Origin: Escherichia coli
GTDB taxonomy: Bacteria; Pseudomonadota; Gammaproteobacteria; Enterobacterales; Enterobacteriaceae
Assembly: GCF_024502345.1 (NCBI RefSeq)
Contig: NZ_JALDNN010000001.1
Length of the DNA stretch: 64,000 nucleotides
Direction: 5' to 3' (one strand)
Part shown: positions 439-26,717 of the stretch, piece by piece
Layout of the letters: every line of letters begins with the position of its first letter
How positions within the stretch are numbered: position 1 is the stretch's first letter
Notes under the pieces: generated by a model
The model's database searches: none
Seen by the model: the letters and a program-made list of their open reading frames with translations, nothing else
Told to the model about the DNA's origin: nothing
Translations under genes and position numbers: made by a program

Positions 439-1200
439 ATGAGGATTTGCAGCGACCAACCTTGTATTGTTTTATTGACTGAAAAAGATGTCTGGATAAG
501 GGTGAATGGGAAAGAACCTATTAGCCTTAAAGCTAACCATATGGCGTTATTAAATTGTGAAAATAATATTATCGACGTCTCCTCTCTTAACAACACTTTG
601 GTTGCTCATATTAGTCACGACATCATCAAAGATTACCTCCGGTTTCTGAATAAAGATCTCTCGCAAATACCAGTATGGCAACGTAGCGCTACGCCCATAC
701 TCACCCTGCCATGCCTGACGCCAGACGTCTTTCGCGTTGCCGCGCAACACAGCATGATGCCCGCAGAAACTGAGTCAGAAAAGGAACGAACACGCGCATT
801 ATTATTCACGGTGCTATCCCGTTTTCTCGACAGTAAAAAATTCCTTTCATTAATGATGTATATGTTACGTAATTGTGTAAGTGACAGCGTTTATCAAATT
901 ATTGAAAGCGATATTCACAAAGACTGGAATCTTAGTATGGTAGCCAGTTGTTTATGTCTTAGCCCAAGTCTGTTAAAGAAAAAGCTGAAAAGCGAAAACA
1001 CCAGTTATAGCCAAATAATCACCACCTGCCGCATGCGTTATGCCGTAAATGAATTAATGATGGACGGTAAAAATATCTCTCAGGTATCACAGTCCTGCGG
1101 CTACAACAGTACGTCGTACTTTATTTCTGTCTTTAAAGACTTCTACGGTATGACGCCGCTGCATTATGTTAGTCAGCACAGAGAACGCACTGTCGCCTGA
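439..1200 (+). CDS. adiY: AraC-family transcriptional activator of the arginine decarboxylase system
   Basis: 253-aa ORF with C-terminal AraC-type HTH region; position between adiA and adiC. Confidence 0.9.
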   Translation: MRICSDQPCIVLLTEKDVWIRVNGKEPISLKANHMALLNCENNIIDVSSLNNTLVAHISHDIIKDYLRFLNKDLSQIPVWQRSATPILTLPCLTPDVFRVAAQHSMMPAETESEKERTRALLFTVLSRFLDSKKFLSLMMYMLRNCVSDSVYQIIESDIHKDWNLSMVASCLCLSPSLLKKKLKSENTSYSQIITTCRMRYAVNELMMDGKNISQVSQSCGYNSTSYFISVFKDFYGMTPLHYVSQHRERTVA

Positions 1201-1336
1201 TTTTTAACCTTAACGAAGAGCTATATTAATAACGGCATCAGCGATAACCCGGTCGATAATAATTCAACTATCGAATGCAGGCGTATGATATGACGTAATT
1301 TATTGTCACGAAGCTCGCCTTCGCAGGAGTTTAATT

Positions 1337-2674
1337 ATGTCTTCGGATGCTGATGCTCACAAAGTGGGCTTAATCCCCGTCACCCTGATGGTGTCGGGGA
1401 ATATTATGGGGTCAGGTGTTTTTCTGTTACCTGCAAACCTGGCCTCTACTGGCGGGATTGCCATTTATGGATGGTTGGTGACGATTATCGGTGCACTGGG
1501 GCTCTCGATGGTATACGCCAAAATGTCGTTCCTCGACCCAAGTCCTGGTGGTTCTTACGCTTACGCCCGCCGCTGCTTTGGCCCGTTTCTCGGTTATCAA
1601 ACCAACGTCCTCTACTGGCTGGCCTGCTGGATCGGCAATATCGCCATGGTGGTCATTGGCGTAGGATATTTAAGTTACTTCTTCCCGATTCTGAAAGATC
1701 CATTGGTATTAACCATCACCTGCGTCGTGGTGCTGTGGATCTTCGTCCTGCTGAACATTGTCGGTCCGAAAATGATCACCCGTGTGCAGGCCGTTGCCAC
1801 CGTGCTGGCGCTGATCCCCATCGTCGGGATTGCCGTATTTGGCTGGTTCTGGTTTCGTGGTGAAACCTATATGGCGGCATGGAACGTCAGCGGCCTGGGC
1901 ACCTTCGGTGCAATTCAAAGTACCCTTAACGTTACGCTGTGGTCGTTCATCGGTGTGGAAAGTGCCTCCGTTGCCGCAGGTGTGGTGAAAAACCCGAAAC
2001 GCAACGTCCCTATAGCCACCATTGGTGGGGTATTGATTGCCGCCGTTTGCTATGTGCTCTCCACCACCGCGATTATGGGGATGATCCCTAATGCCGCACT
2101 GCGCGTTTCTGCCTCGCCATTCGGTGATGCCGCACGGATGGCGTTGGGTGACACCGCCGGGGCCATCGTTTCCTTCTGCGCAGCTGCGGGTTGCTTAGGT
2201 TCACTGGGCGGCTGGACATTGCTGGCGGGTCAAACGGCGAAAGCCGCTGCCGATGACGGACTGTTCCCACCGATTTTTGCCCGTGTAAATAAAGCGGGTA
2301 CGCCAGTGGCGGGGCTGATTATCGTCGGTATTTTGATGACCATCTTCCAGCTCAGCAGCATTTCACCAAACGCGACCAAAGAATTCGGTCTGGTTTCTTC
2401 CGTCTCGGTCATCTTTACACTGGTGCCATATCTTTACACCTGTGCGGCGTTACTGCTGCTCGGACACGGTCACTTTGGTAAAGCACGCCCGGCATATCTG
2501 GCAGTTACTACCATTGCCTTCCTCTACTGCATCTGGGCCGTGGTGGGGTCCGGGGCGAAAGAGGTTATGTGGTCATTTGTCACCCTGATGGTCATCACCG
2601 CCATGTATGCGCTGAATTACAACCGGCTGCATAAAAACCCGTATCCCTTAGATGCACCAATAAGCAAAGATTAA
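1337..2674 (+). CDS. adiC: Arginine:agmatine antiporter (APC superfamily)
   Basis: 445-aa polytopic membrane ORF; recognised N-terminus and length. Confidence 0.93.
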
Positions 2675-2698
2675 TTCCCCTTAATCCAGCAAAGATAA

Positions 2699-2738
2699 AA
2701 GCCAACCTTAAGAACTTAAGGTTGGCTTAATTTTGCTT
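2699..2738 (+). terminator. Hairpin terminator after adiC
   Basis: Inverted repeat gccaaccttaag/cttaaggttggc followed by a T-rich tract. Confidence 0.5.
2715..2731 (+). promoter_or_regulatory. BasR/PmrA box upstream of eptA
   Basis: Direct repeat CTTAAG-N5-CTTAAT about 47 bp upstream of the eptA ATG. Confidence 0.55.
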
Positions 2739-2777
2739 TGCGAGCATATGCGCACTTTGTTCGATGGAAACACCGTG

Positions 2778-4421
2778 ATGTTGAAGCGCCTACTAAAAAG
2801 ACCCTCTTTGAATTTACTCGCCTGGCTATTGTTGGCCGCTTTTTATATCTCTATCTGCCTGAATATTGCCTTTTTTAAACAGGTGTTGCAGGCGCTGCCG
2901 CTGGACTCGCTGCATACCGTACTGGTTTTCTTGTCGATGCCGGTCGTCGCCTTCAGCGTGATTAATATTGTCCTGACACTAAGCTCTTTCTTATGGCTTA
3001 ATCGACCGCTGGCCTGCCTGTTTATTCTGGTTGGCGCGGCTGCACAATATTTCATAATGACTTACGGCATCGTCATCGACCGCTCGATGATTGCCAATAT
3101 TATTGATACCACTCCGGCAGAAAGCTATGCGCTGATGACACCGCAAATGTTATTAACGCTGGGATTCAGCGGCGTGCTTGCTGCGCTGATTGCCTGCTGG
3201 ATTAAAATCAAACCTGCCACCTCGCGTCTGCGCAGTGTTCTTTTCCGTGGAGCCAATATTCTGGTTTCTGTACTGCTGATTTTGCTGGTAGCCGCACTAT
3301 TTTATAAAGACTACGCCTCGTTGTTCCGCAACAACAAAGAGCTGGTGAAGTCCTTAAGCCCCTCTAACAGCATTGTTGCCAGCTGGTCATGGTACTCCCA
3401 TCAGCGACTGGCAAATCTGCCGCTGGTGCGAATTGGTGAAGACGCGCACCGCAACCCGTTAATGCAGAACGAAAAACGTAAAAATTTGACCATCCTGATT
3501 GTCGGCGAAACCTCGCGGGCGGAGAACTTCTCCCTCAACGGCTACCCGCGTGAAACTAACCCGCGGCTGGCGAAAGATAACGTGGTCTATTTCCCTAATA
3601 CCGCATCTTGCGGCACGGCAACGGCAGTTTCAGTACCGTGCATGTTCTCGGATATGCCGCGAGAGCACTACAAAGAAGAGCTGGCACAGCACCAGGAAGG
3701 CGTGCTGGATATCATTCAGCGAGCGGGCATCAACGTGCTGTGGAATGACAACGATGGCGGCTGTAAAGGTGCCTGCGACCGCGTGCCTCACCAGAACGTC
3801 ACCGCGCTGAATCTGCCTGATCAGTGCATCAACGGCGAATGCTATGACGAAGTGCTGTTCCACGGGCTGGAAGAGTACATCAATAACCTGCAGGGTGATG
3901 GCGTGATTGTCTTACACACCATCGGCAGCCACGGTCCGACCTATTACAACCGCTATCCGCCGCAGTTCAGGAAATTTACCCCAACCTGCGACACCAATGA
4001 GATCCAGACCTGTACCAAAGAGCAACTGGTGAACACTTACGACAACACGCTGGTTTACGTCGACTATATTGTTGATAAAGCGATTAATCTGCTGAAAGAA
4101 CATCAGGATAAATTTACCACCAGCCTGGTTTATCTTTCTGACCACGGTGAATCGTTAGGTGAAAATGGCATCTATCTGCACGGTCTGCCTTATGCCATCG
4201 CCCCGGATAGCCAAAAACAGGTGCCGATGCTGCTGTGGCTGTCGGAGGATTATCAAAAACGGTATCAGGTTGACCAGAACTGCCTGCAAAAACAGGCGCA
4301 AACGCAACACTATTCACAAGACAATTTATTCTCCACGCTATTGGGATTAACTGGCGTTGAGACGAAGTATTACCAGGCTGCGGATGATATTCTGCAAACT
4401 TGCAGGAGAGTGAGTGAATGA
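2778..4421 (+). CDS. eptA: Lipid A phosphoethanolamine transferase
   Basis: 547-aa product from ATG 2778 (tool ORF begins 15 codons earlier); N-terminal membrane region plus sulfatase-like domain; overlaps basR start by 4 nt. Confidence 0.92.
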
Positions 4422-5086
4422 AAATTCTGATTGTTGAAGACGATACGCTGTTATTGCAGGGACTGATTCTGGCGGCGCAAACCGAAGGCTACGCGTGCGA
4501 TGGCGTGACAACCGCGCGGATGGCGGAACAAAGCCTTGAGGCCGGTCATTACAGCCTGGTGGTACTGGATTTAGGGTTACCCGACGAAGATGGACTGCAT
4601 TTTCTCGCCCGTATCCGGCAGAAAAAATATACCCTGCCGGTACTGATCCTCACCGCTCGCGATACGCTGACCGACAAAATCGCCGGGCTGGATGTCGGTG
4701 CCGATGACTATCTGGTGAAGCCTTTTGCGCTGGAAGAGTTACATGCCCGTATCCGCGCCCTGCTACGACGCCATAATAATCAGGGCGAAAGTGAGCTGAT
4801 TGTTGGCAATCTGACGCTGAATATGGGTCGCCGTCAGGTATGGATGGGCGATGAAGAGTTGATTCTGACGCCCAAAGAATATGCTCTGCTGTCACGGTTA
4901 ATGCTCAAAGCAGGCAGTCCGGTGCATCGGGAAATTCTCTACAACGACATCTATAACTGGGACAATGAACCCTCGACCAACACCCTGGAAGTGCATATCC
5001 ACAATCTGCGCGACAAAGTGGGCAAAGCCCGTATCCGCACCGTGCGCGGCTTTGGCTATATGCTTGTCGCGAATGAGGAAAACTAA
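4418..5086 (+). CDS. basR: Two-component response regulator (OmpR family)
   Basis: 222-aa ORF with receiver domain and winged-helix C-terminus. Confidence 0.95.
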
Positions 5087-5095
5087 TTGAATCTG

Positions 5096-6187
5096 ATGCG
5101 TTTTCTGCGCCGACCAATATCGCTGCGCCAACGGCTGATATTGACCATCGGGGCCATTTTGTTGGTGTTTGAGCTGATCAGCGTCTTCTGGCTATGGCAT
5201 GAAAGTACCGAGCAGATTCAGCTGTTTGAGCAGGCGCTACGCGACAATCGCAACAACGATCGCCACATCATGCGTGAGATCCGCGAGGCGGTCGCCAGCC
5301 TGATTGTCCCCGGCGTCTTTATGGTCAGCCTGACGCTATTTATCTGCTATCAGGCGGTACGCCGCATCACCCGCCCGCTGGCGGAGCTGCAAAAAGAGCT
5401 GGAAGCGCGCACCGCCGACAACTTAACGCCCATTGCCATTCACAGCGCCACCCTCGAAATCGAAGCGGTGGTTTCAGCGTTAAACGATCTGGTCAGTCGC
5501 CTGACCAGCACGCTGGATAACGAAAGGTTGTTTACCGCTGACGTCGCGCACGAACTGCGAACGCCACTGGCGGGGGTACGTTTGCATCTGGAACTGCTGG
5601 CGAAAACGCATCACATTGATGTAGCACCGTTAGTGGCACGGCTTGATCAGATGATGGAGAGCGTCTCCCAGCTGCTGCAACTGGCGCGTGCCGGACAGTC
5701 ATTTTCTTCCGGTAATTATCAACATGTAAAACTGCTGGAAGATGTCATTCTCCCCTCGTATGACGAACTCAGTACCATGCTCGACCAGCGACAGCAAACC
5801 CTGCTATTGCCAGAGAGCACCGCCGACATCACCGTTCAGGGTGATGCAACCCTGCTGCGGATGTTATTGCGAAACCTGGTAGAAAACGCCCATCGTTACA
5901 GCCCGCAAGGCAGCAACATTATGATTAAGCTGCAAGAAGATGGCGGAGCGGTCATGGCAGTTGAAGATGAAGGACCAGGTATTGATGAGAGTAAATGCGG
6001 GGAGTTGAGTAAAGCGTTTGTACGTATGGACAGCCGTTATGGCGGGATTGGTCTGGGGTTAAGTATTGTCAGCCGCATTACACAGTTGCATCACGGGCAG
6101 TTTTTCCTGCAAAACCGGCAAGAGACTTCCGGCACGCGGGCCTGGGTACGGCTGAAGAAAGATCAGAACGTGGCAAACCAGATATAA
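5096..6187 (+). CDS. basS: Two-component sensor histidine kinase
   Basis: HisKA H-box (ADVAHELRTPL) and ATPase motifs; start at ATG 5096 or TTG 5087. Confidence 0.92.
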   Translation: MRFLRRPISLRQRLILTIGAILLVFELISVFWLWHESTEQIQLFEQALRDNRNNDRHIMREIREAVASLIVPGVFMVSLTLFICYQAVRRITRPLAELQKELEARTADNLTPIAIHSATLEIEAVVSALNDLVSRLTSTLDNERLFTADVAHELRTPLAGVRLHLELLAKTHHIDVAPLVARLDQMMESVSQLLQLARAGQSFSSGNYQHVKLLEDVILPSYDELSTMLDQRQQTLLLPESTADITVQGDATLLRMLLRNLVENAHRYSPQGSNIMIKLQEDGGAVMAVEDEGPGIDESKCGELSKAFVRMDSRYGGIGLGLSIVSRITQLHHGQFFLQNRQETSGTRAWVRLKKDQNVANQI

Positions 6188-6252
6188 AGAAAGCTGCTGA
6201 CCACCAGCACGCTGAACACGGTAGTTAAACTTTCATAAACACGGTTTTTCAT
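6163..6252 (-). CDS. pmrR: 29-aa small membrane protein PmrR, antisense-overlapping the basS 3' end
   Basis: Manual translation gives MKNRVYESLTTVFSVLVVSSFLYIWFATF; 25-nt convergent overlap with basS. Confidence 0.7.
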   Translation of the reverse strand: MKNRVYESLTTVFSVLVVSSFLYIWFATF

Positions 6253-6296
6253 TGCACTCTCCTCCGTTAACCTGGAGGAGAGTATGCGCGTCAGAG

Positions 6297-6313
6297 ATTA
6301 AGTGAACCTTAAG
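6297..6313 (-). promoter_or_regulatory. BasR/PmrA box upstream of pmrR
   Basis: On the minus strand reads CTTAAG-N5-CTTAAT, about 45 bp upstream of the pmrR ATG. Confidence 0.5.
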
Positions 6314-6322
6314 AGTTCAATT

Positions 6323-6351
6323 GGCCTGATAAGACAGCGTTACATCAGGCC
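6323..6351. repeat. REP-like palindrome between basS/pmrR and proP
   Basis: ggcctgat...atcaggcc inverted repeat. Confidence 0.5.
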
Positions 6352-6363
6352 ATCCGTTTCAGC

Positions 6364-7866
6364 TTATTCATCAATTCGCGGATGTTGCTGCACCAGGCGG
6401 GTACGTTTCGCCTGCAAATCGGCAATCTCGTGGTCAATATCATCGATTTTCTGCTCGATATTATCGTAATGCTCGACGAGAATTTCCTTCGCTTCCTGTA
6501 TATCTGACGCCGCCGGTGTTGCACCTTTCAACGGACGATTTGCCGTCTCTTTCATGGTTACGCCGGTGATTAAACCAACCACCGCCACTACCATCAGGTA
6601 ATAGGCTGGCATCATCAGATTCTGCGAGCTTTCGACCAGCCAGGCCGCCAGTGTTGGCGTCAGACCGGCAACCAGCACCGAAATATTAAATGCCGCCGCC
6701 AGCGCGCTGTAACGGATATGCGTCGGGAACATCGCTGGCAAGGTAGAAGCCATAACGCCCGTAAAGCAGTTAAGGATCACCGCCAGCATCAGTAACCCGG
6801 CAAAAATCAGGCCGATGACGTTACTGTTAATCAGAATAAACGCCGGGATCGCCAACACAAACAGTGCAACACTACCAAGTAGCACAAACGGACGACGGCC
6901 AAAACGGTCACTCAGCAAGCCCATCACCGGCTGGACAAACAGCATACCGATCATAATGGCGATAATAATCAGCACCCCGTGGTCTTCGGAGTAATGCAGG
7001 TTATGCGACAAATAACTCGGCATATAGGTCAGCAACATGTAGTAAGTCACGTTGGTGGCAATTACCAGACCAATACATGTCAACAGGCTGCGCCAGTATT
7101 TAGTGGCAATCTCTTTAAACGAGACTTTCGGGCCATCCTGCAAACCTTCGCGGTCGCCCTGTTCCAGTTTATCAACATGCTGCTGGAACGCCGGAGTTTC
7201 TTCCAGCGCATGGCGCAGGTAAAGCCCGATAATCCCTAACGGCAGAGCAATAAAGAACGGAATACGCCAGCCCCAGTCGAGGAAGTTCGCTTCGCCGACA
7301 ATGGTCGAAATTAACACCACCACGCCCGCACCCAGCACAAACCCGGCAATAGAACCGAAGTCCAGCCAGCTGCCCATAAAGCCACGTTTACGGTCAGGGG
7401 AGTATTCCGCAACAAATATCGACGCCCCGGTATATTCACCGCCGACCGAGAAACCTTGTGCCATCTTACAGATCAACAGCAGAATCGGTGCCCAAATACC
7501 AATCGTGTCGTAGGACGGTATTAAGCCAATACAGAACGTACTGATCGACATAATCACAATAGTGATAGCGAGGATCTTCTGGCGACCATATTTATCGCCC
7601 AACATACCAAAGAAGAGTCCGCCAAGCGGTCGAATCAGAAAGGGAACGGAGAAAGTGGCAAGTGCAGCAACCATCTGCACGCTGGGGTCAGCCCCCGGGA
7701 AAAAAACTTTACCTAATGCGTAAGCAACAAAACCATAAACACCAAAATCAAACCATTCCATTGCATTACCCAGTGATGCTGCGGTAATGGCTTTACGCAG
7801 TTTACCGTCATCAATAATGGTGACATCACGAAGGGTAATTGGTTTTACTTTTTTCCTTTTCAGCAT
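6364..7866 (-). CDS. proP: Proline/glycine betaine:H+ symporter (MFS osmosensor)
   Basis: 500-aa product from internal start MLKRKKVKPITLRD; MFS topology with C-terminal coiled-coil tail. Confidence 0.95.
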   Translation of the reverse strand: MLKRKKVKPITLRDVTIIDDGKLRKAITAASLGNAMEWFDFGVYGFVAYALGKVFFPGADPSVQMVAALATFSVPFLIRPLGGLFFGMLGDKYGRQKILAITIVIMSISTFCIGLIPSYDTIGIWAPILLLICKMAQGFSVGGEYTGASIFVAEYSPDRKRGFMGSWLDFGSIAGFVLGAGVVVLISTIVGEANFLDWGWRIPFFIALPLGIIGLYLRHALEETPAFQQHVDKLEQGDREGLQDGPKVSFKEIATKYWRSLLTCIGLVIATNVTYYMLLTYMPSYLSHNLHYSEDHGVLIIIAIMIGMLFVQPVMGLLSDRFGRRPFVLLGSVALFVLAIPAFILINSNVIGLIFAGLLMLAVILNCFTGVMASTLPAMFPTHIRYSALAAAFNISVLVAGLTPTLAAWLVESSQNLMMPAYYLMVVAVVGLITGVTMKETANRPLKGATPAASDIQEAKEILVEHYDNIEQKIDDIDHEIADLQAKRTRLVQQHPRIDE

Positions 7867-8129
7867 AGCTTTCCTCGCAGAGTTGGCCCATTTCCGCAAA
7901 CGCCAGAAAAATCAGCGCGACGGCCGCAAAAGGGGAGCGGGAATTGCAGGATGCAATCTCTGTAACAAGCGTAGCGGGTTTGCTTACACCCTCCGGTTAA
8001 GGAATGTACAATCAAACCAGTTGACGCCTGAATTGGGCAGTTAGTGACCTTTTTACCCTACCAGTGTTTAAATTTGTGATCAACTTCACACATGGATTTC
8101 GTTTAGGACTCATTGATGTAACTAATTAT

Positions 8130-13616: not shown

Positions 13617-14633
13617 ATGAACGCTAAGATAATTGCCTCGCTGGCCTTCACCAGCATGTTCAGCCTCAGCACCCTGTTAACCCCGGCGCATGCCGAAGAG
13701 CAGGAAAAGGCGCTGAATTTCGGCATTATTTCAACGGAATCACAGCAAAACCTGAAACCGCAATGGACGCCGTTTTTACAGGATATGGAGAAGAAGCTGG
13801 GCGTGAAGGTCAACGCCTTCTTTGCCCCGGATTACGCGGGCATTATCCAGGGAATGCGCTTCAACAAAGTGGATATCGCCTGGTACGGCAACCTGTCGGC
13901 GATGGAAGCGGTGGATCGCGCCAACGGTCAGGTCTTCGCTCAGACCGTAGCGGCGGACGGATCGCCGGGTTACTGGAGCGTGTTGATCGTCAACAAAGAT
14001 AGCCCGATCAACAACCTGAACGATCTGCTGGCGAAGCGGAAAGATCTCACCTTCGGCAATGGCGATCCTAACTCCACCTCTGGCTTCCTCGTCCCCGGTT
14101 ACTACGTCTTTGCCAAAAACAATATCTCCGCTAACGACTTTAAGCGCACCGTCAACGCCGGGCATGAAACCAACGCGCTGGCCGTCGCCAACAAGCAGGT
14201 GGATGTTGCCACCAACAACACCGAAAACCTCGACAAGCTGAAAACCTCCGCGCCGGAGAAGTTGAAAGAACTGAAAGTGATCTGGAAGTCGCCGCTGATC
14301 CCAGGCGATCCGATCGTCTGGCGCAAAAATCTTTCCGAAACCACCAAAGACAAGATCTACGACTTCTTTATGAACTACGGCAAAACGCCGGAAGAAAAAG
14401 CGGTGCTGGAACGCCTGGGCTGGGCACCGTTTCGCGCTTCCAGCGACCTGCAACTGGTGCCGATTCGCCAGCTCGCGCTGTTTAAAGAGATGCAGGGCGT
14501 GAAAAGCAATAAAGGACTGAATGAGCAGGACAAGCTGGCAAAAACCACCGAGATTCAGGCGCAGCTGGATGACCTGGACCGCCTGAACAACGCGCTAAGC
14601 GCGATGAGTTCGGTGAGTAAAGCGGTGCAGTAA
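13617..14633 (+). CDS. phnD: Phosphonate ABC transporter periplasmic binding protein
   Basis: 338-aa ORF with signal peptide. Confidence 0.95.
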   Translation: MNAKIIASLAFTSMFSLSTLLTPAHAEEQEKALNFGIISTESQQNLKPQWTPFLQDMEKKLGVKVNAFFAPDYAGIIQGMRFNKVDIAWYGNLSAMEAVDRANGQVFAQTVAADGSPGYWSVLIVNKDSPINNLNDLLAKRKDLTFGNGDPNSTSGFLVPGYYVFAKNNISANDFKRTVNAGHETNALAVANKQVDVATNNTENLDKLKTSAPEKLKELKVIWKSPLIPGDPIVWRKNLSETTKDKIYDFFMNYGKTPEEKAVLERLGWAPFRASSDLQLVPIRQLALFKEMQGVKSNKGLNEQDKLAKTTEIQAQLDDLDRLNNALSAMSSVSKAVQ

Positions 14634-22858: not shown

Positions 22859-23617
22859 ATGAGCCTGACCCTCACGCTCACCGGCACCGGCGGCGCACAG
22901 GGCGTTCCGGCATGGGGCTGCGAGTGTGCGGCCTGCGCCAGAGCGCGGCGCTCGCCGCAGTATCGCCGCCAGCCGTGCAGCGGCGTAGTAAAGTTTAACG
23001 ACGCAATCACCCTGATCGACGCCGGGCTGCACGATCTCGCCGATCGCTGGTCGCCCGGTTCGTTCCAGCAGTTTTTGCTGACGCACTACCATATGGATCA
23101 CGTGCAGGGGCTATTCCCGCTGCGCTGGGGCGTGGGCGATCCGATCCCGGTTTACGGCCCACCGGATGAACAGGGCTGCGACGATCTGTTTAAACATCCG
23201 GGCCTGCTTGATTTTAGCCACACGGTGGAACCGTTTGTAGTGTTTGATTTGCAGGGATTGCAGGTCACGCCGCTGCCGCTCAACCACTCAAAACTGACCT
23301 TCGGTTATCTGCTGGAAACGGCACACAGCCGGGTGGCGTGGCTGTCTGACACCGCTGGCTTGCCGGAAAAAACGCTGAAATTTTTACGCAATAATCAGCC
23401 GCAGGTAATGGTGATTGATTGCAGCCACCCGCCGCGCGAGGATGCGCCACGTAATCACTGTGATTTAAACACCGTGCTTGCGCTGAATCAGGTTATCCGC
23501 TCGCCGCGCGTGGTTCTGACCCATATCAGCCACCAGTTTGATGCGTGGCTGATGGAAAACGCACTGCCGTCGGGGTTTGAGGCGGGGTTTGATGGGATGG
23601 AGATTGGGGTGGCGTGA
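22859..23617 (+). CDS. phnP: Metallo-beta-lactamase-fold phosphodiesterase
   Basis: HxHxDH motif ([10 protein letters not shown]); 252 aa. Confidence 0.92.
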
Positions 23618-23640
23618 TGAGAGGGAATGTGCGCGCTGGC

Positions 23641-23740
23641 CCCCTCACCCTAACCCTCTCCCCAGAGGGGCGAGGGGACCGATTGTGCTCGATATTGAAT
23701 ATTACGCTGGTTTTCTCCCTCTCCCCATTGGGGTGAGGGG
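23641..23740. repeat. Pair of GC-rich imperfect palindromes downstream of phnP
   Basis: ccctctcccc-aga-ggggcgagggg and ccctctcccc-att-ggggtgagggg, flanked by cccctcaccc / gggtgagggg. Confidence 0.5.
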
Positions 23741-23763
23741 CGATGCCTGCTCCATACCCAACC

Positions 23764-24093
23764 TCATCGCCCATACTCATCTTCCATTCTCCGCTCTTCA
23801 TCTTCTAGCTGCCGACGCTCCTGATCAAGCTGGCGCTGGCGATCGTCCAGCTGCCTGCGGCGATCTTCAAACTGGCGGCGGCGGTCGTCATATTGTCTGC
23901 GCCGATCGTCGCTCACTTCACGCTGCCAGCCGTCGTCGCGCGAATCTTCATAGTCTCGCCCACGGTCAGGGTTATAAGCGTCGTTAATCGCCTGCTGAAT
24001 ATTGCCAATGGTGTCGTCGATAATATCGGCCTGGGCCGGTACGGTGGTCAGCGTGAGCAGGGTGAATAAAAGAAATAGCGGAAAGCGTTTCAT
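23764..24093 (-). CDS. yjdP: Secreted low-complexity Asp/Arg-rich protein
   Basis: 109-aa ORF with signal peptide then DDRRRQ-type charged repeats. Confidence 0.8.
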   Translation of the reverse strand: MKRFPLFLLFTLLTLTTVPAQADIIDDTIGNIQQAINDAYNPDRGRDYEDSRDDGWQREVSDDRRRQYDDRRRQFEDRRRQLDDRQRQLDQERRQLEDEERRMEDEYGR

Positions 24094-24161
24094 TAGCCAA
24101 CCTCAAAAAGAAACTCTATCCACATTAGTCATTACTCATCCATGCAAGTAGTGGATGAATC

Positions 24162-24479
24162 TCAATTTCTCCGCTGCTCTATTGCCGTAATCGCTTCCAC
24201 GCTTTGTTGATGACGACCGCCTTCGTACTGTGCGCCCAGCCACGCATCCACAATCATTTTTGCCAGTTCGAGGCCAACCACTCGTGAACCAAAAGCCAGT
24301 GCAACTTCACTGGCGTAATGCGGATAATCAGTGCGCTCTGACGACCTGGTTTCTTTATCAATCCCCTCACTCATTGACCATGAATAAAAGGCTGGCACAG
24401 CAACACAGAATCCTGCGGTGCCAGCGACATGACCGCCCATTGCTCCGGTACGTTTTTTAATAAAAAACACCGGTTGCAT
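24162..24479 (-). pseudogene. rpiB: Decayed remnant of ribose-5-phosphate isomerase B
   Basis: 105-codon ORF whose C-terminus (FGSRVVGLELAKMIVDAWLGAQYEGGRHQQ.VEAITAIEQRRN) and SSERTDYPHYAS segment match RpiB as I recall it (about 149 aa), with about 44 codons missing internally and a diverged N-terminus. Confidence 0.5.
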
Positions 24480-24731
24480 TGATTAATTGTGCTCAGTATT
24501 TGCCGAAGTACAATATATATAATAAATATATAAAACACCTCATATTATTTACAGAGATAATAAATTCGCGTACTTTTCCCTCTTCAGCACAAATGCCTAA
24601 TAAAATGGATCGTTCCGCTCACACTTCCACTTATTAAAGTCGCAATTTCCCAATTATGATAACGCCAGCTTTAAATGACGTATTTTGCATGGATTACATA
24701 TTTACGACATAAATGATAAATGGAGATTTAT

Positions 24732-26717
24732 ATGAATAACTCTCGGTTATTCCGTTTGAGCAGGATTGTTATTGCGTTAACTGCCGCCAGCGGCATGATG
24801 GTAAATACCGCTTACGCGAAAGAGGAAGCGAAAACCGCCACTCAATATACCCAACAGGTTAATCAGAATTACGCCAAATCATTACCGTTTAGCGATCGTC
24901 AGGATTTTGACGATGCCCAGCGTGGATTTATCGCCCCGCTGCTGGATGAAGGTATTCTGCGTGATGCGAACGGTAAAGTTTACTACCGCGCAGACGATTA
25001 CAAATTTGATATTAATGCCGCTGCGCCGGAAACCGTAAACCCCAGCCTGTGGCGTCAGTCGCAGATCAACGGCATTTCTGGCCTGTTCAAAGTCACCGAT
25101 AAAATGTATCAGGTGCGCGGCCAGGATATCTCTAACATTACGTTCGTTGAGGGGGAGAAAGGCATTATTGTCATCGACCCGCTGGTGACGCCGCCTGCCG
25201 CAAAAGCCGCACTTGACCTTTACTTCCAGCATCGTCCGCAAAAACCGATTGTTGCCGTTATCTACACTCACAGCCACACCGACCACTATGGTGGCGTGAA
25301 AGGCATTATCTCTGAAGCCGATGTTAAATCCGGCAAAGTACAGGTGATTGCCCCTGCTGGCTTTATGGACGAAGCCATCAGCGAAAACGTGCTGGCGGGT
25401 AACATCATGAGCCGCCGTGCGCTCTACTCTTACGGTCTGTTACTGCCACACAACGCGCAAGGCAACGTGGGTAATGGCCTTGGCGTGACGCTGGCAACGG
25501 GCGACCCGAGCATTATTGCACCGACTAAAACTATCGTCAGAACTGGCGAGAAGATGATTATCGACGGCCTGGAGTTTGACTTCCTGATGACCCCAGGTAG
25601 CGAAGCACCAGCCGAAATGCACTTCTATATTCCGGCCCTGAAAGCCCTGTGTACCGCCGAAAACGCCACGCATACCCTGCACAACTTCTACACTCTGCGC
25701 GGCGCGAAAACCCGCGATACCAGCAAGTGGACCGAGTACCTGAACGAAACGCTGGATATGTGGGGTAACGACGCGGAAGTGCTGTTTATGCCGCACACCT
25801 GGCCGGTCTGGGGCAATAAGCATATCAATGATTATATTGGTAAATATCGCGATACCATCAAGTATATTCACGATCAAACCCTGCATCTGGCGAACCAGGG
25901 CTACACCATGAATGAAATCGGCGACATGATTAAGCTGCCGCCTGCACTTGCCAATAACTGGGCCAGCCGTGGCTATTACGGTTCTGTCAGCCACAACGCC
26001 CGCGCGGTGTATAACTTCTATCTTGGCTATTACGACGGTAACCCGGCTAACCTGCATCCGTATGGTCAGGTAGAGATGGGCAAACGTTACGTGAAAGCGC
26101 TGGGCGGTTCTGCCCGTGTCATCAACCTGGCGCAAGAAGCGAACAAGCAAGGTGATTACCGCTGGTCGGCAGAACTGCTGAAACAGGTGATTGCCGCCAA
26201 CCCGGGTGACCAGGTCGCGAAGAATCTGCAAGCGAATAACTTTGAACAGCTGGGCTATCAGGCCGAGTCCGCCACATGGCGCGGTTTCTACCTGACCGGC
26301 GCGAAAGAGCTGCGCGAAGGGGTGCATAAGTTCAGCCACGGCACCACCGGTTCCCCGGACACCATTCGCGGAATGTCGGTCGAAATGCTGTTCGACTTTA
26401 TGTCCGTTCGCCTCGATAGCGAAAAAGCCGCGGGTAAAAATATCAGCCTGAACTTCAATATGAGCAACGGCGATAACCTCAACCTGACGCTGAACGATAG
26501 CGTGCTTAACTACCGTAAAACGCTGCAATCCCAAGCTGACGCCTCTTTCTACATCAGTCGTGAAGATCTGCACGCCGTGCTGACCGGACAAGCCAAAATG
26601 GCAGATCTGGTAAAAGCGAAGAAAGCCAAAATTATTGGCAATGGCGCGAAACTGGAAGAAATTATCGCCTGTCTGGATAATTTCGATTTGTGGGTGAATA
26701 TCGTAACCCCAAATTAA
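24732..26717 (+). CDS. yjcS: Secreted metallo-beta-lactamase-fold alkyl sulfatase-like protein
   Basis: 661-aa product with signal peptide and HxHxDH motif (HSHTDHYGG). Confidence 0.9.

Follow-up and report, generated by a model that had tools for sequence, protein, structure and literature searches.

A short als-negative allele between yjdP and yjcS in Escherichia coli, very probably a derived deletion scar of the rpiB-alsRBACEK locus

The window analyzed in this study is a stretch of 64,000 nucleotides of Escherichia coli DNA in which the end of the phn operon (phnM–phnP) is followed by yjdP on the minus strand, yjcS on the plus strand, ytcA, and mdtNOP. The yjdP gene (23764–24093, minus strand), which encodes a DDRRRQL repeat protein, and the yjcS gene (24732–26717, plus strand), which encodes an alkyl sulfatase, are the intact left and right flanks of a variable slot. 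Their products are each 99% identical in amino-acid sequence to the K-12-type proteins. The gap between the two genes (24094–24731) is exactly 638 bp, the length given in the initial annotation, with which the ORF coordinates agree. For comparison we used the corresponding locus of a K-12-type genome (L002), the als region of which is 100% identical to that of a K-12 strain. There the same interval is 7,270 bp long and contains rpiB on the minus strand and alsR, alsB, alsA, alsC, alsE, and alsK on the plus strand, in line with the gene content and length of about 7 kb given for K-12 in that annotation. In E. coli K-12, rpiB-alsRBACEK is the D-allose regulon (Kim et al. 1997; Poulsen et al. 1999; both as described in PMC2808357), and it occupies this same yjdP–yjcS slot.

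Compared with the K-12 locus, the window lacks about 6.7 kb and has no regulator, transporter, epimerase, kinase, or active isomerase there; what it keeps are rpiB codons ~29–53 and ~105–149 and the alsK stop codon and terminator. A tblastn search with the K-12-type Als proteins found no als homologue (alsR, alsB, alsA, alsC, alsE, or alsK) elsewhere in the 64-kb window; the only matches were generic ABC-ATPase similarities to phn genes and to one locus near 60 kb. The earlier proposal that the als operon is absent, with a decayed rpiB remnant left between yjdP and yjcS, agrees with these results.

Several observations concern the surroundings of the slot. The phnP–yjdP spacer (23618–23763) contains two copies of a G+C-rich palindromic repeat (CCCTCTCCCC..GGGG[C/T]GAGGGG) and is 146 bp long in the window vs. 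27–34 bp in strains AST20 and ST131 4433; because its length differs among strains, the repeat block is itself polymorphic. For positions 14000–36000, the best match among complete E. coli genomes was only 98.2% over 22 kb, so the lineage of the window is unrepresented among them. On a metagenome contig encoding an identical YjcS (L069), genes for a decarboxylase and an AraC-type regulator directly adjoin yjdP, and the phn operon is thus lacking at that site.

Breakpoints were mapped by blastn of the window against L002 and by a three-way sequence comparison. This alignment to the K-12-type rpiB-als region, which the initial annotation had suggested, revealed two junctions and an orphan segment, beyond the single junction proposed in it. 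Window positions 23764–24299 (yjdP, the spacer, and the last 138 nucleotides of rpiB) correspond to L002 10001–10536 with 98.3% identity. Within this segment the yjdP–rpiB spacer (24094–24161, minus strand) is the same as in intact alleles, with 98.5–100% identity to those of E. coli, and the rpiB 3′ fragment (24162–24299, minus strand), which consists of the stop codon and codons ~105–149, is collinear with L002 10399–10536. Positions 24290–24369 (rpiB codons ~29–53) correspond to L002 10686–10765 with 88.8% identity. They are followed by 8 bases without a match in L002 (24370–24377), which at junction 2 separate rpiB codon ~28/29 from the alsK end; by the last 6 nucleotides of alsK and the hairpin downstream of it on the plus strand (24378–24429; L002 17323–17374, 77% identity); by a 78-bp orphan segment, also without a match in L002 (24430–24507); and by the upstream region and start of yjcS (24508–24900; L002 17376–17769, 95% identity). 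The yjcS promoter/leader region (24576–24731, plus strand) is conserved and common to all alleles.

At junction 1, overlapping blastn segments and the three-way comparison identified a 10-bp microhomology, CAAAAGCCAG (24290–24299), which matches the distal copy, CAACAGCCAG, at 9 of 10 positions. This junction bounds an in-frame deletion of 159 bp comprising rpiB codons ~54–106, and the junction site proposed in the initial annotation (24293|24294, plus strand) falls inside the microhomology. On the minus strand, junction 1 brings a hairpin that already existed in rpiB up against TTTTGG, and a terminator-like match results; this hairpin at 24295–24314 (GCCAGTG-AAGTTG-CACTGGC, minus strand) abuts TTTTGGTT, and the match lies inside the remnant ORF described below, upstream of yjdP. 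Junction 2 bounds a deletion of ~6.56 kb that runs between rpiB codon ~28 and a point 6 bases short of the alsK end; lost with it are the 5′ end of rpiB, the promoter region between the divergent rpiB and alsR genes, alsR and alsBACE themselves, and almost the whole of alsK. The alsK remnant is CCATGA, its last 6 bases, and a hairpin (CTGGCAC...GTGCCAG) is predicted downstream of it. No clear microhomology was detected at junction 2 by blastn and sequence comparison with L002. An IS-mediated deletion was considered and rejected, because no IS or IS end is present at the junctions, junction 1 is a microhomology, and the orphan segment is single copy. In strain EC291 (L004 8288–9029), in contrast, an IS1 adjoins a truncated yjcS; the IS1-associated deletion in that strain extends from yjdM to the start of yjcS, and phn, yjdP, and the slot are gone.

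The chimeric ORF in the gap (24162–24479, minus strand) is 105 amino acids long and is annotated by PGAP as 'RpiB/LacA/LacB family sugar-phosphate isomerase'. It had been called the single ORF in the interval; other ORFs of at least 30 amino acids exist, but it is the sole one with homology. The RpiB C-terminus and the SSERTDYPHYAS segment that had been recognized in it were both found, by BLASTP and by the match to RpiB in the PDB. BLASTP aligned ORF residues 38–62 with RpiB residues 29–53 and ORF residues 63–105 with RpiB residues 107–149, leaving a gap of 53 residues; RpiB from the PDB (1NN4/2VVR) matched the ORF in the same two separate stretches, which are 84–98% identical to E. coli RpiB. 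The alignment to functional RpiB is therefore confined to these two stretches and is not full length. The earlier estimate of about 44 missing internal codons was too low, since the BLASTP gap is 53 codons (159 bp). The supposed diverged RpiB N-terminus is not RpiB at all: the first 37 residues come from non-rpiB DNA, namely the hairpin region downstream of alsK, read in reverse complement, and the 78-bp orphan, and RpiB residues 1–28 are absent.

Compared with functional RpiB/LacAB proteins, the ORF thus lacks the N-terminal strand/loop (residues 1–28), an active-site segment that includes Asp9/His10, and the central catalytic-cysteine segment (residues 54–106). The missing central segment includes the catalytic Cys66-Gly-Thr68 (the ICGTG segment), and no CGTG motif is present in the 105-amino-acid sequence. 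Cys66, the reactive residue, is considered to serve as the catalytic base in the RpiB family (PMC3212906). The Pfam domain LacAB_rpiB (PF02502) was matched at model positions 102–138 of 138 (E = 6.6e-8), with a weak match at 27–49 (E = 1.7), rather than over its full length of about 138 positions. Because the Cys66-Gly-Thr68 block and residues 1–28 are missing, the ORF cannot be an isomerase. The native rpiB–alsR intergenic region (L002 10849–11206) is deleted, no promoter-like match for the ORF was found in a simple consensus scan, and reading of the sequence upstream of its ATG revealed no Shine-Dalgarno-like sequence; a promoter and ribosome-binding site of its own are thus lacking. Judged from these sequence features, the ORF is probably an accidental reading frame, a non-functional remnant rather than an enzyme.

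The frequencies of the slot alleles were determined among 5,426 complete E. coli genomes. With a 1,137-bp scar query, coverage of at least 80% was found in 1,568 genomes; with a 231-bp query spanning both junctions, the same coverage was found in 1,570, with 96.5–100% identity. The scar, with the same two junctions and the same orphan segment, therefore has a frequency of about 29%. The alsR–alsK block was present in 3,404 of the 5,426 genomes, and the Sakai/O157-type 9.2-kb island in about 411–422. Any match to the middle rpiB piece was found in 4,979 genomes. Because this number is close to 1,570 + 3,404, the scar and als+ sets are essentially disjoint, and at the population level scar carriers do not have als genes elsewhere. 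These population counts argue against an als or rpiB copy elsewhere in the window's own genome. We conclude that the scar is a common, old, shared allele and not a strain-specific event. Rare states in which the locus was lost by other routes also exist, among them the deletion in EC291 described above. The O103 strain WL1467 (L081 4012–5543) has a frameshifted alsA in an otherwise intact operon. In Escherichia sp. MOD1-EC7003 (L005), phnP, yjdP, and the als genes are absent from the 10 kb upstream of yjcS, and the ORF lengths in that region match those of window positions 439–7899.

Eight scar alleles were compared with four intact E. coli alleles. From yjdP to junction 1 (206 bp) there were no fixed differences, and the rpiB 3′ fragment likewise had none; the next 70 bp contained six. 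At three of these six sites the scar state is that of an outgroup Escherichia species (L007), unlike that of the intact E. coli alleles. The middle rpiB fragment (24300–24369, minus strand; codons ~29–53) has 88.6–92.6% identity to every intact allele tested, and the intact rpiB closest to it, in about 3,409 genomes, has at most about 91%. The alsK-downstream piece is 75–77% identical to L002 and other intact alleles. Positions 24508–24657 have 86–89% identity to intact and Sakai-type alleles; the part at 24508–24575 (plus strand) is the cassette-linked, diverged part of the yjcS upstream region, with its own haplotype for each of the three slot occupants, and all alleles converge beyond ~24575. 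Scar-specific DNA is about 9–25% diverged from every intact allele, whereas the difference among the intact als operons of E. coli does not exceed about 2.6%; in the private DNA at about 24300–24575, divergence between scar and intact alleles is far above that among intact alleles. There are at least two scar haplotypes, about 4–5% apart in the private segments (middle fragment and orphan), each of which occurs with a different deep yjcS allele. The deep divergence and the presence of at least two haplotypes indicate that the polymorphism is old. Within yjcS itself, an O103 als+ strain and a scar-bearing strain show 79–85% identity across about 600 bp (24958–25558), and the yjcS of strain WWCOL-236 has 71–88% identity along the whole gene; such deep yjcS alleles (L074, L080, and L081 were compared) do not follow the upstream cassette type.

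The 78-bp orphan segment contains an A/T-rich hairpin (about 24446–24474) and the ATG of the chimeric ORF (24477–24479, minus strand). It is single copy per genome among the complete E. coli genomes, and blastn found no counterpart in the intact, Sakai-type, or outgroup loci. Three candidate relationships were discarded. A match to the Sakai-type/Citrobacter flank (TGATTAAT..TGTGC..CGAAGT) that looked suggestive by eye was not significant by local alignment (40 of 500 shuffles), a 15-nucleotide match to the phnP–yjdP repeat region was marginal (7 of 500), and the resemblance of the ORF start MQPV to the start of the Sakai response regulator, MKPV, was dropped because it involves ~12 nucleotides. 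No Rfam family matched positions 23400–25000 at E ≤ 1.

The polarity of the change was examined by a YjcS scan of species-representative genomes followed by tblastn. In E. whittamii (L006) and in the distinct Escherichia species L007, yjdP-rpiB-alsRBACEK-yjcS is present in synteny; because the als locus is intact in two other Escherichia species, the arrangement in the window is derived within Escherichia. The window keeps three collinear pieces of the intact rpiB-als locus, and the retained rpiB and alsK pieces likewise make the als locus the older state in this genus. The E. whittamii locus (L006 2791–9696) is itself a mosaic when compared with that of E. coli: its RpiB and AlsR proteins are 100% identical, its AlsK is only 87% identical, and rpiB has about 13–15 synonymous differences in its 3′ 138 nucleotides vs. 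2 in the middle 70 nucleotides. This pattern suggests between-species recombination inside the locus.

Other occupants of the slot were also found. The Sakai-type island of O157:H7 (ECs_5067–ECs_5074; L003 2781–11931) lies in the same slot as window positions 24094–24510 and shares a right boundary near 24510; it is 9.2 kb long, encodes a hybrid histidine kinase, a response regulator, a sugar ABC transporter, a class II aldolase, and a pfkB-family kinase, and, unlike the scar, contains no rpiB remnant. An island of this type also occupies the slot in Escherichia sp. E1V33 (L065) and in a Citrobacter (L015). Two Kluyvera loci (L011 and L012) have phnP-yjdP-yjcS without als genes, and in Salmonella enterica subsp. 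arizonae (L009) phnP adjoins yjcS, again without als. A Pluralibacter metagenome-assembled genome (L025 555–9633) has an independent rpiB C-terminal remnant (residues 64–148) adjoining yjdP, followed by a 1,478-amino-acid autotransporter-like ORF, a partial Sakai-type island, and then yjcS. At family depth the yjdP–yjcS slot is a hotspot of cassette turnover.

We consider it very probable that 24094–24731 is an als-negative allele of the yjdP–yjcS slot, formed as a derived deletion scar of rpiB-alsRBACEK; the breakpoint map, the 53-residue protein gap, and the intact outgroup loci all agree with the deletion scar proposed in the initial annotation. An ancestral yjdP-rpiB-als-yjcS locus lost the roughly 6.56 kb bounded by junction 2, and a further 159 bp inside rpiB disappeared at the 10-bp microhomology. 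What remains is an in-frame fusion of two rpiB fragments, together with the hairpin downstream of alsK and the 78-bp orphan. The scar may have persisted as a presence/absence polymorphism with flanks homogenized by homologous recombination, and the sequences point to a single old origin. The opposite polarity, in which the short arrangement is an ancestral empty site into which the K-12 als operon was later inserted, seems extremely improbable. The Kluyvera and S. enterica subsp. arizonae arrangements without als genes are consistent with it, and at family depth the als locus probably did enter the slot at some point. An empty site, however, would hold no such fragments as the two rpiB pieces and the alsK stop codon and terminator, which are kept here in intact order and orientation; this reading is therefore refuted for Escherichia, two other species of which carry the intact syntenic locus. 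Two features are awkward for the deletion scar. It does not account for the 78-bp orphan, and simple neutral decay does not predict an rpiB 3′ fragment without any decay, which thus needs gene conversion from als+ alleles or another explanation. A possible, although on balance doubtful, alternative is that the scar did not arise by two independent E. coli deletions and that homology-facilitated illegitimate recombination brought it in from a diverged Escherichia lineage in a single step. The right end would have been anchored by homology upstream of yjcS (about 24575) and the left end joined at the 10-bp rpiB microhomology, with the already deleted locus of the donor replacing the resident 5′ part of rpiB and the als operon. 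Import would suit the position of junction 1 between typical E. coli DNA (0 fixed differences in 206 bp) and diverged DNA (6 in 70 bp), the end of the diverged block at a homologous boundary near 24575, the three of six fixed sites shared with L007 and not with the intact E. coli alleles, and the absence of the orphan from every E. coli als+ allele. However, no donor lineage with a single-deletion scar was present among the Escherichia loci retrieved, the sample sizes are small, and an old scar whose left flank was later gene-converted up to the heterology gives the same pattern. Two routes therefore fit the scar data: either two deletions occurred and gene conversion then acted on the left flank as far as the heterology, or the locus came in by one-step import.

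The state of the ORF also bears on the deletion scar. It is intact in all 8 scar alleles inspected and is a PGAP CDS in every scar genome listed, and its polymorphisms, 7 non-synonymous to 6 synonymous, fall somewhat under the neutral ratio of 3.1:1, although these counts are small and the 3′ part of the ORF can import synonymous variation from functional alleles. Together with the perfectly conserved rpiB 3′ part and the independent retention of an rpiB C-terminal remnant beside yjdP in Pluralibacter, these facts would suit a kept, expressed small protein in a new role, such as an RpiB C-terminal helix interaction module or a yjdP-expression unit. We regard such a role as very unlikely. The ORF has neither a Shine-Dalgarno-like sequence nor a promoter-like match, and it has lost the native rpiB promoter region. 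A stop would be made by only 4.6% of random substitutions in the ORF, so chance alone would be expected to leave it intact over the ~13 substitutions observed. In the part that functional alleles cannot refresh, the ratio is 5:3, and the counts are too small to tell about selection. Sakai-type alleles without any rpiB 3′ part still keep yjdP; they replace everything upstream of the first yjdP codons, which also weakens the idea that the rpiB 3′ fragment is an obligatory yjdP promoter. For the deletion scar as a population-level allele, we put forward only tentatively that it is a very old presence/absence polymorphism, maybe introgressed from a diverged Escherichia or predating the E. coli phylogroups, and held at ~29% beside the als+ and Sakai-type cassettes by niche-dependent rare-sugar selection.

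D-allose, a rare sugar, is promoted as a low-calorie sweetener. Given what the als genes are known to do, a scar carrier would be expected to have lost D-allose catabolism, and it presumably relies on RpiA for ribose-5-phosphate isomerization. Neither the enteroaggregative strain EAEC 042 nor E. coli W has the als operon, and neither uses allose (PMC2808357; PMC3032704), and PCN033, without alsBACEK, is predicted to be unable to use it (PMC4578781). Only 34% of Escherichia metabolic models are predicted to grow on allose, and als status is among the more variable catabolic traits in the genus (PMC9393557). Likened by the published descriptions, in which 042, W, and PCN033 are without rpiB-alsRBACEK, the window has the same kind of allele; in those papers the operon is simply absent, whereas the remnant ORF, the two junctions, and the orphan segment are not described.

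The biology of als-negative E. coli is thus already known, and the scar is real and ordinary. The yjdP–yjcS slot is a tidy three-allele case of cassette turnover rather than new biology. If the scar is indeed a long-held polymorphism, the ~275-bp block of deep divergence (24300–24575) would be a linked footprint of long allele coexistence. The main practical point concerns annotation, where the remnant is labeled as though it were an isomerase: about 1,570 complete genomes carry the PGAP name, which can wrongly lead pan-genome and metabolic-model pipelines to score rpiB as present.
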